A DNA stretch of 29,317 nt, from positions 1 to 29,317 of the IMG/VR virus record IMGVR_UViG_2872164251_000007; one strand, given 5' to 3'. The notes below the pieces were generated by a model. The model did no database searches. It saw only the letters and a list, made by a program, of their open reading frames with translations, and was not told the DNA's origin. This document shows positions 11,704 to 12,315 of this stretch, one piece after another; within the stretch, counting starts at the first letter, position 1; each line of letters opens with the position of its first letter. A program made the position numbers and the translations under genes. This DNA is from a virus. Taxonomy: Duplodnaviria; Heunggongvirae; Uroviricota; Caudoviricetes.

Positions 11704-11726
11704 GGTCCCTATAGTGATAGTTTAGT
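11704..11726 (-). promoter_or_regulatory. T7-group phage RNA polymerase promoter-like sequence P1
   Basis: Minus strand -17..+6 = ACTAAACTATCACTATAGGGACC; contains the CACTATAGGG core of T7/SP6-type promoters; about 320 nt upstream of the Rha-family start. Confidence 0.55.
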
Positions 11727-12264
11727 CAAACAGGAATGAACTTCGGAGAACTTGACGCGAAAGTGTTCAGTACTTCCAGTAAGACCCGAAGCATGGAGAC
11801 CACATCATAGCGACCATAATTTTACTTCGGGTTGGCGGGAGTGGAGGCTGGACTTAAAGTTCTTCTTATTGGAATTGTGATAACACAATCCATAACAAGA
11901 TAAACTCATGGTCTCCTCCAGCCTGCTGGTCAAGACTCAAAGCTCCAACCTCAGACACCACTGATCTAACCTCTTTGAGTTTCCGCCTGTCCACAAATGG
12001 ATGGCAGACCTCAGTAATGGTGTCTTGGTTCTTCAGTTATCCGCGCAGCGATTATCACAGAGCCAACTTAAAGTCGGATGTGGTCTACTGCTCCCCGCCT
12101 GTCAAAAGGGAAGATAGCTTACGTTAAAAGGAATGGTCTCAGGCCAAGGTGATTTAACACTAGGCGTCTGCGGATGGTTTCCAATCGGTCCGCTACCGGA
12201 AGCCTGAGACTTAATGAATGTGTGTATGGGTCGTGACTGCTATTAAGGTGGGGACTTAGGGTCT

Positions 12265-12287
12265 CTCCCCTATAGTGATAGTTAAGG
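12265..12287 (-). promoter_or_regulatory. T7-group phage RNA polymerase promoter-like sequence P2
   Basis: Minus strand CCTTAACTATCACTATAGGGGAG; shares AACTATCACTATAGGG with P1; 28 nt downstream of P3. Confidence 0.55.
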
Positions 12288-12292
12288 GTCCA

Positions 12293-12315
12293 TTCCTCTA
12301 TAGTGAGGTGTATTA
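12293..12315 (-). promoter_or_regulatory. T7-group phage RNA polymerase promoter-like sequence P3 (closest to T7 consensus)
   Basis: Minus strand TAATACACCTCACTATAGAGGAA versus T7 consensus TAATACGACTCACTATAGGGAGA (18/23 identical, -9 to +1 identical); begins 5 nt after the stop of the 202-aa gene. Confidence 0.6.

Follow-up and report, generated by a model that had tools for sequence, protein, structure and literature searches.

A Shigella flexneri island with T7-group phage promoters and a predicted capsid gene: a candidate minimal satellite of virulent phages

The locus and its three phage-type promoters

The DNA analyzed here is a 29.3 kb window (the whole stretch of IMG/VR record IMGVR_UViG_2872164251_000007; all coordinates below are positions in this window), and its subject is a genetic island at 5794-14779 that extends from a tRNA-Gly gene to a distal att repeat. 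The exact sequences of the island's integrase and of its 329-amino-acid protein are recorded from Shigella flexneri, and the window is Shigella flexneri DNA. The limits of the island were set by comparison with the Escherichia coli genomes CFSAN064035 and 13E0767. Two insertion sequence (IS) elements lie within these limits, and the island is about 6.4 kb without them. Along the minus strand, the integrase gene is followed by a gene for a 202-amino-acid protein, three promoter-like sites (P3, P2, and P1), a leader, the regulator gene rha, a 58-amino-acid open reading frame (ORF), genes for 163- and 329-amino-acid proteins, and about 440 nt of non-coding DNA. We consider it probable, at roughly 65%, that this island is a minimal capsid-encoding satellite of virulent T7-group phages. 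The three sites are as follows.

12315..12293, minus strand, +1 at 12298: P3, TAATACACCTCACTATAGAGGAA, T7-type promoter-like site
12287..12265, minus strand, +1 at 12270: P2, CCTTAACTATCACTATAGGGGAG, predicted K1F-group (Kayfunavirus) promoter
11726..11704, minus strand, +1 at 11709: P1, ACTAAACTATCACTATAGGGACC, predicted K1F-group (Kayfunavirus) promoter

A first-pass annotation of the window had proposed three T7-group promoter-like sequences on the minus strand, and all of them are present at the positions that it gave. Each is a 23-bp site with the conserved core CACTATAG (-7 to +1) and a G start. P3 is identical to the T7 consensus at 18 of 23 positions. The annotation had pointed to the differences at -11 and -10, which can be read directly from the sequence together with further mismatches at +2, +4, and +5. 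The sequence AACTATCACTATAGGG is common to P1 and P2, as had been noticed before, and the tandem spacing of 28 nt between P3 and P2 was also reproduced. The three promoters lie within 590 nt. P3 begins 5 nt past the stop of the 202-amino-acid gene (12320-12928), in agreement with its earlier placement directly after a gene with a HEPN motif. P1 is 320 nt upstream of the Rha start codon (11389), so that the claimed distance was right. One correction to the annotation is that, in this window, an IS3-family element cuts the Rha gene after about 10 codons.

The core sequence TCACTATAG occurs three times in the window, always on the minus strand and always inside 11709-12306. The chance expectation is 0.14 +/- 0.35, and none of 100 dinucleotide-preserving shuffles reached three copies, which bears out the earlier view that a co-oriented trio is very unlikely by chance. 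With a K1F promoter matrix, P1 and P2 scored 34.3 and 26.6 bits, respectively, where K1F's own promoters score 31.7-36.0 bits and the next-best site of the window 6.5 bits. With a T7 matrix, P3 scored 27.2 bits, which is at the bottom of the range of T7's own promoters (26.0-39.2 bits); the next-best window site scored 10.5 bits. The excess of cores and the scores, which are in the range of genuine promoters and far above the next-best sites, exclude chance. The non-coding region around the promoters (about 900 nt) has no blastn similarity to any phage record, except at an IS end.

Cognate phages of the promoters

An exact scan of IMG/VR found AACTATCACTATAGG in many viral contigs of 39-40 kb, at 8-10 copies per genome and on a single strand. 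These contigs are Kayfunavirus genomes, including PE3-1, vB_EcoP_F, LM33_P1, ZG49, and other K1F-like phages. The K1F genome has nine promoters of the form [A/C]CT[A/T]AACTATCACTATAGG. P2 is identical to the K1F promoter at 25338 over -17 to +3 (20/20), and P1 agrees with the K1F promoter at 17194 at 22 of 23 positions, its identity reaching from -17 to +5. By this sequence identity, we assign P1 and P2 to the polymerase of K1F-like Kayfunavirus phages and not to that of T7 or T3. Taken together, the three sites most likely serve as promoters of single-subunit RNA polymerases that belong to virulent phages of the T7 group (Autographiviridae, Studiervirinae).

P3 resembles the GW1-type promoters that stand at the same position in other islands, minus one C. 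We considered P3 as a privately decayed GW1-type promoter from which one C had been deleted. The notion of private decay was dropped, because the IS-free island of E. coli 13E0767 has an identical P3 and the P3-bearing cassette is 99.7% identical across ten complete E. coli genomes.

Anatomy of the island

The remaining features of the island are listed below in the order of the minus strand.

14705..14779, minus strand: tRNA-Gly (tcc), integration site
12960..14570, minus strand: tyrosine integrase, 536 amino acids (Pfam Phage_integrase, E = 1.6e-18)
12320..12928, minus strand: variable cassette upstream of the promoters, 202-amino-acid protein with Rx4H (HEPN-like) motif RDAIAH
11390..11520, minus strand: conserved leader with one long imperfect predicted hairpin, directly upstream of the first operon gene
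11360..11389, minus strand: first ~10 codons of rha, severed by an IS element
10050..11359, plus strand: IS3-family element with ALIL frameshift pseudoknot, interrupts rha
9348..10049, minus strand: remainder of the Rha-family regulator gene
9170..9346, minus strand: 58-amino-acid small ORF, position conserved across islands
8559..9050, minus strand: 163-amino-acid protein, DUF6971 relative, always directly before the capsid-fold gene
7486..8475, minus strand: 329-amino-acid protein, predicted HK97 major-capsid fold
7236..7333, minus strand: concatemer-junction mimic (T7 group), truncated by an IS element
5988..7232, plus strand: second IS3-family element, splits the junction mimic
5794..5810, plus strand: distal att repeat (TGGAGCGGGC...), copy of the tRNA 3' end, island boundary

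The 3' 27 nt of tRNA-Gly(tcc) are identical to those of glyU (tRNA-Gly(ccc)), which is the chromosomal site used in E. coli. Four ORFs lie downstream of the promoters, and none is a polymerase. With one IS element in the regulator gene and another in the junction mimic, the Shigella flexneri copy of the island is probably no longer functional.

The leader of about 130 nt (11390-11520 in the window, 8320-8445 in island L196, and 8190-8312 in island L199) is near-identical in E. coli/Shigella, Citrobacter koseri, and Rouxiella. It is conserved although the remaining intergenic region, and even the downstream gene, differ. The RNAalifold fold of its hairpin had a z-score of -0.31 and little covariation, leaving the structure without statistical support. 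The leader could be an RNase III-type processing site as in T7 mRNAs. We found no intrinsic terminator on the transcribed strand after the capsid-fold gene. In the sister island of E. coli CFSAN064035 (island L001), two sigma-70-like sites were counted and 5.1 were expected.

A predicted capsid protein and its small partner

The 329-amino-acid protein has no Pfam or PHROG match, and its assignment comes from structure prediction. The AlphaFold (AF2) model, built with 35 homologues, has a predicted local distance difference test (pLDDT) score of 84.6 and a predicted template modeling (pTM) score of 0.80. At E <= 1e-3, the model matched 208 PDB and 193 BFVD structures. Among the best 50 of each set, every match is a capsid or head protein, an encapsulin, or unnamed; the matches include the capsids of phi29, T5, Klebsiella phage Kp9, and phage PhiM1. 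One homologue bears an Ig domain of the kind seen on phage structural proteins, and one member of the protein's 90% UniRef cluster carries the name 'Phage major capsid protein'. We therefore describe the 329-amino-acid protein as a predicted HK97-fold capsid-like protein. Its gene is the last of the operon at every island inspected.

The 163-amino-acid protein consists of a small N-terminal domain and two long helices. A homologue from Shigella flexneri 5a M90T, the 'uncharacterized protein' SF216, has been crystallized (PDB 5EUR; matched by the family profile at E = 1e-40), which means that an island protein is already represented by a solved structure. We also considered a scaffold role for this protein. 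Only its gene position and the two long helices would suggest such a role, and the candidate was set aside as unsupported: the sole structural match was its own homologue 5EUR, a protein of no assigned function.

A copy of the phage concatemer junction

The non-coding DNA past the capsid-fold gene aligns with K1F 39471-39587. In K1F, this segment crosses from the unique sequence of the right end into the terminal repeat, which is 178 bp long and begins with TCTCACAG at 39527. The local alignment score was 31.5, against 17.2 +/- 1.3 (maximum 21) for dinucleotide shuffles aligned with the whole K1F genome. Other islands match the same K1F segment, namely those of E. coli a15 (z = 24.1), LR-33 (z = 13.8), and CFSAN064035 (z = 13.3), and of C. 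koseri (z = 13.3); the similarity extends to the islands of Rouxiella (z = 7.6) and Serratia marcescens (z = 7.3). Two blocks, AAAAATcTGAG..CA|TCTcAcA and CCCCCATAG, are common to T7, K1F, and all islands that match the K1F end. The predicted equivalent of the terminase cut in the window is between 7283 and 7282. The second IS element truncates the mimic here, and its final ~12 nt are found at 5976-5987.

The island of Serratia nevei provides a comparison between phage types. Its promoters are T7-type, and its junction is likewise similar to the end of T7 (z = 13.1) but not to that of K1F (z = 1.2), indicating that promoter class and packaging-site class change together. As judged from these alignments, the island has a putative packaging signal that matches that of its presumed helper.

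Related islands with exchanged promoter classes

The comparison set comprised thirteen related islands from seven genera. Of 5426 complete E. coli genomes, 309 carry the 329-amino-acid gene, in every case on the chromosome. Distant homologues of the protein occur in Citrobacter, Rouxiella, Serratia, Enterobacter, Erwinia/Pantoea, Hafnia, Proteus, and Tatumella, and the capsid-fold proteins of distant islands are 28-45% identical. The layout is the same at every locus inspected: the integrase is followed by a variable gene and, after a non-coding stretch of about 1 kb, by a regulator, a small ORF, a gene for 136-165 amino acids, and a gene for 328-402 amino acids. The regulator gene varies among the islands and encodes Rha, KilA-N, or an unknown protein. 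The promoter positions are kept across related islands, including those of six other genera, whereas the promoter class differs from island to island and becomes that of other real T7-like phages.

E. coli islands L001 and L238: a K1F-type site in tandem with ACCCACACTATAGG, which is the promoter sequence of Escherichia phage SRT7 (Foetvirus) and also of Vibrio phage N4/ICP3
E. coli LR-33 and C. koseri: A[A/C]ACCCTCACTATAGG, the promoter of Kayfunavirus GW1/Dev2-type phages
Rouxiella: two K1F-type sites
Serratia nevei: near-canonical T7 sites (AATTACGACTCACTATAGGGAGA)
Citrobacter freundii and S. marcescens: further promoter types

One of the GW1-type island sites, in E. coli LR-33, is identical to a phage promoter at 23 of 23 positions. 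The features shared by these islands incline us slightly towards a widespread family of minimal satellites, which would use helper promoters as a switch and perhaps as an origin, carry a copied junction and their own HK97 capsid, swap promoter and junction classes in step with different helper genera, and transport anti-T7 cargo such as PD-T7-4.

Several islands have peculiarities of their own. In the C. freundii island L234, the promoter cassette is duplicated on either side of an IS66 insertion (4390-4423 and 7461-7569), and the island has five T7-like promoters of three classes. The S. marcescens island L236 has a AAACCCCGACTATAGAGAG promoter after the integrase gene and a near-identical one past the capsid-fold gene (7766 and 11478); the second would read into the integrase if the island were circular or concatemeric. 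A second integration site, used by six islands (L239, L199, L234, L273, L195, and L198), is not a tRNA gene and lies inside a molybdopterin reductase gene (ynfE/ynfF region). The islands at this site have a shorter integrase of 432-526 amino acids.

The variable slot and its defense cargo

The segment 12284-13017 of the window, which contains the 202-amino-acid gene and P3, is replaced in E. coli CFSAN064035 by a DUF4145 gene and a different promoter. This DUF4145 gene (15953-16612 of island L001) is PD-T7-4, matched over its full length by PADLOC with E = 1.3e-102, and PD-T7-4 fills the slot beside the integrase in E. coli, Rouxiella, and S. nevei islands. In the study of Vassallo et al. (2022; PMC9519451), PD-T7-4 emerged from a selection against T7. 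The same paper remarks that it 'often overlaps an integrase gene', which agrees with the island slot that adjoins and overlaps the integrase gene. In the portion of that paper available to us, PD-T7-4 is characterized without mention of a surrounding island (PMC9519451).

In the window, the slot holds an unrelated gene. The 202-amino-acid protein has no match to Pfam, PHROG, PADLOC, or DUF4145/PD-T7-4, and its sequence is unrelated to PD-T7-4. Its Rx4H motif, RDAIAH, is present as had been noted earlier. From its motif and position, we regard the 202-amino-acid protein as a candidate new defense gene. The gene is not driven by the three promoters, because it is upstream of them.

P1 also coincides with a change in similarity between islands. 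Homology of the window with the IS-free island of E. coli 13E0767 ends exactly at the P1 start site (11708/11709), and past this point the window follows the CFSAN064035-type island with its Rha module. The promoters thus seem to be boundaries of module exchange.

Satellite function and competing explanations

The first-pass annotation had suggested that the polymerase of an infecting T7-like phage reads the island genes, either for a satellite or for an infection-triggered cassette. Every computational test that we ran supports this suggestion at the level of sequence. From the promoter identity, the island anatomy, the fold prediction, and the junction similarity with its co-variation with promoter class, we infer how transcription, excision, replication, packaging, and transfer of the island may proceed. 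The island would be quiet under the host polymerase, except for the integrase and the adjacent defense-type cassette. Upon infection, the polymerase of a K1F-like phage would recognize P2 and P1, as their exact identity with phage promoters suggests, and turn on the co-oriented operon; P3 perhaps serves another polymerase. The operon would then supply the regulator (Rha here), the small protein, the 163-amino-acid protein, and the HK97-fold capsid protein. T7 promoters act at T7 replication origins, and the island promoters may likewise double as entry points for the helper replication machinery. The similarity of the junction copy to phage ends suggests that the helper terminase would cut and package the island DNA, possibly into capsids made of the island protein. 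The integrase-side cassette would be anti-phage cargo, as others have shown experimentally for PD-T7-4 and as we propose for the 202-amino-acid protein.

A number of observations weigh against a satellite of this kind. Among the island ORFs, no portal, terminase, or replication protein was recognized with Pfam and PHROG. The integrase and the att repeats at tRNA-Gly are present, but no excisionase was recognized. With none of these functions recognized, a full satellite cycle would rest almost wholly on the helper. The integrase is upstream of the promoters and is therefore not transcribable by a phage polymerase from the integrated state. The satellite reading also leaves unexplained the way in which an HK97 protein foreign to the helper could be joined to a portal of the T7 type. 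The DNA downstream of the tandem promoters has a GC content of 0.48-0.49 and, unlike the T7 primary origin, is not AT-rich, as the first-pass annotation had already remarked. The class II pause signal ATCTGTT of the T7 terminal repeat is not conserved in the islands. No viral contig repeats the P3 sequence from -12 to +1, and ACACCTCACTATAG is repeated in no phage (a 16-mer and a 14-mer were tried); of the comparison with sequenced phages that the first-pass annotation had outlined, the K1F-group assignment of P1 and P2 thus stands, and a cognate phage for P3 was not found. Two distant islands, L272 of Erwinia/Pantoea and L273 of Enterobacter, showed neither a tandem of canonical CACTATAG sites nor similarity to the ends of K1F or T7. 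Finally, no free or encapsidated island DNA was found in IMG/VR. The capsid-gene copies there are on contigs of 72.9 and 24.6 kb, which are far above the ~6.4 kb of the island and so give no sign of a free or separately packaged form.

One Rouxiella contig (L197; Logan SRR32375585, 6413 bp) corresponds to a whole island, from before the integrase to the distal att. It suggests a branch of the assembly graph at the att sites, as from mixed occupied and empty sites or from excised forms. We examined it as a possible circular form and rejected this, because no terminal overlap was found; the contig is not evidence for a circular form.

The main rival explanation is a defense-only role, which we regard as unlikely while giving it real weight. 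The island would then be an infection-triggered defense cassette, abortive or interfering, that is not transferred by phages: products such as a decoy capsid protein and a Rha/KilA-N-type regulator would poison the assembly or the gene expression of the infecting T7-like phage, and the island would move by other means. In its favor, the promoters are of genuine phage type, sister islands hold the validated anti-T7 gene PD-T7-4, and the island lacks replication and packaging proteins of its own. Known satellites interfere with their helpers too. However, the known or candidate defense gene is upstream of the promoters and not driven by them, and the operon proteins match no PADLOC model. A pure defense cassette would also leave unexplained the conserved junction mimic and its change of class along with the promoters.

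The island could also be the decayed remnant of an integrated T7-like phage, in which the promoters, the capsid gene, and the end sequence are functionless leftovers. All three are phage-derived, and the window copy is ridden with IS elements. We consider this improbable. The compact layout of five to six genes, with intact ORFs and defined att sites, recurs in Escherichia, Citrobacter, Rouxiella, Serratia, Enterobacter, and Erwinia/Pantoea, and remnants of a polymerase, of DNA replication genes, or of tail genes are found in no island. The capsid-fold protein has no sequence match to phage families. In addition, the promoters are still perfect matches to those of circulating phages, which implies selection. 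That the sites arose by chance, or belong to a host repeat family with no relation to phage promoters, has nothing in its favor except that the motifs are short. Both ideas are effectively refuted by the three sites against 0.14 expected, by the identity of the 15-mer common to P1 and P2 with the repeated Kayfunavirus promoter, by the absence of further copies from the window and from the 30 kb surrounding the E. coli island, and by an Rfam scan of 11300-12400 that returned no family.

Relation to known elements

Islands with promoters of this type are already known as a bioinformatic class, since Chen and Schneider reportedly described tandem T7-like promoter-bearing genetic islands of enterobacteria in Nucleic Acids Research in 2006. 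These elements are said to be small, to neighbor an integrase and a tRNA gene, and to carry two or three promoters of T7-like type in the same orientation, with a few ORFs of unknown nature downstream and no gene for the polymerase itself. The authors reportedly proposed that the islands depend on T7-like phages, and S. flexneri genomes are said to be among those scanned. The window island fits this description, with an integrase by a tRNA gene, direct repeats, three co-oriented promoters, and no RNA polymerase gene. In the literature searched, we found no experimental follow-up of the tandem-promoter islands.

The closest functional parallel is a laboratory construct. Chung and Hinkle reportedly showed (J Mol Biol, 1990) that plasmids with a T7 origin and a T7 concatemer junction are replicated and packaged by T7. 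The island has the same two cis elements, phage promoters and a concatemer junction, on a small replicon without phage replication or packaging genes. In contrast to the plasmids, it occurs in nature and integrates, carries a capsid-fold gene in addition, and has neither the AT-rich segment of the origin nor the pause site ATCTGTT.

Among known satellites, cfPICIs have temperate helpers and bring a complete head module of their own, with parts of the portal and terminase machinery among its products. The island resembles them as a satellite-type element that encodes its own HK97-fold capsid protein. It does not have their head module (capsid, protease, portal, connectors, and small terminase), and only the HK97-fold gene and its DUF6971-like partner are present. 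Moreover, cfPICIs are about 14 kb in size (PMC10803314), whereas the island is 6.4 kb and would use virulent T7-group helpers and their promoters. Only PLE and PICMI were counted in 2024 as satellite families with virulent helpers, and no T7-group satellite was named (PMC10803314). Both Vibrio families consist of small integrated elements that a virulent helper induces, and in this they are similar to the island as proposed here. Use of promoters of the helper polymerase is reported for neither, and their hosts and helpers are unrelated to those of the island. PICMI is similarly minimal and carries defense cargo (PMC10803314), but it lacks a capsid gene, and its concatemers are packaged by the headful mechanism. 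Hallmark genes of the PICI, P4-like, PLE, and PICMI elements, such as AlpA, primase-replicase, and Sid/Psu/Delta, had no Pfam or PHROG match in any island ORF.

Should the island prove to be a satellite, it would represent the direct use of a helper's orthogonal transcription system as a sensor, by a mobile element that encodes a capsid protein and is very small (~6.4 kb). T7 and its relatives are the best-studied virulent phages. The validated defense gene PD-T7-4 would gain a mobile-element context, and such islands would matter wherever K1F-like or other Kayfunavirus phages are used therapeutically against E. coli and Shigella. The system can be put to a direct test, because sequenced strains such as E. 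coli 13E0767 and CFSAN064035 carry intact islands and the cognate phage groups are identified. The satellite mechanism is likewise open to testing through the capsid-fold gene, the junction mimic, and the link to PD-T7-4.

Genomic surroundings of the island

The tRNA-Gly(tcc) gene at the island boundary belongs to a Met-Arg-Thr-Gly tRNA cluster (14705-15015). This cluster adjoins lambdoid prophage remnants (18178-19838) with a Q-antiterminator-like DUF1133 gene, DUF1367, and the isrK and C4 RNAs. The surroundings are very rich in IS elements of the IS66, IS3, IS91, and IS1 types (1-5100, 15700-17990, 20166-20669, and 26249-29317), and one IS3-family element is present in three copies around the island. 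A sok RNA of the hok/sok type is located at 21325-21499.

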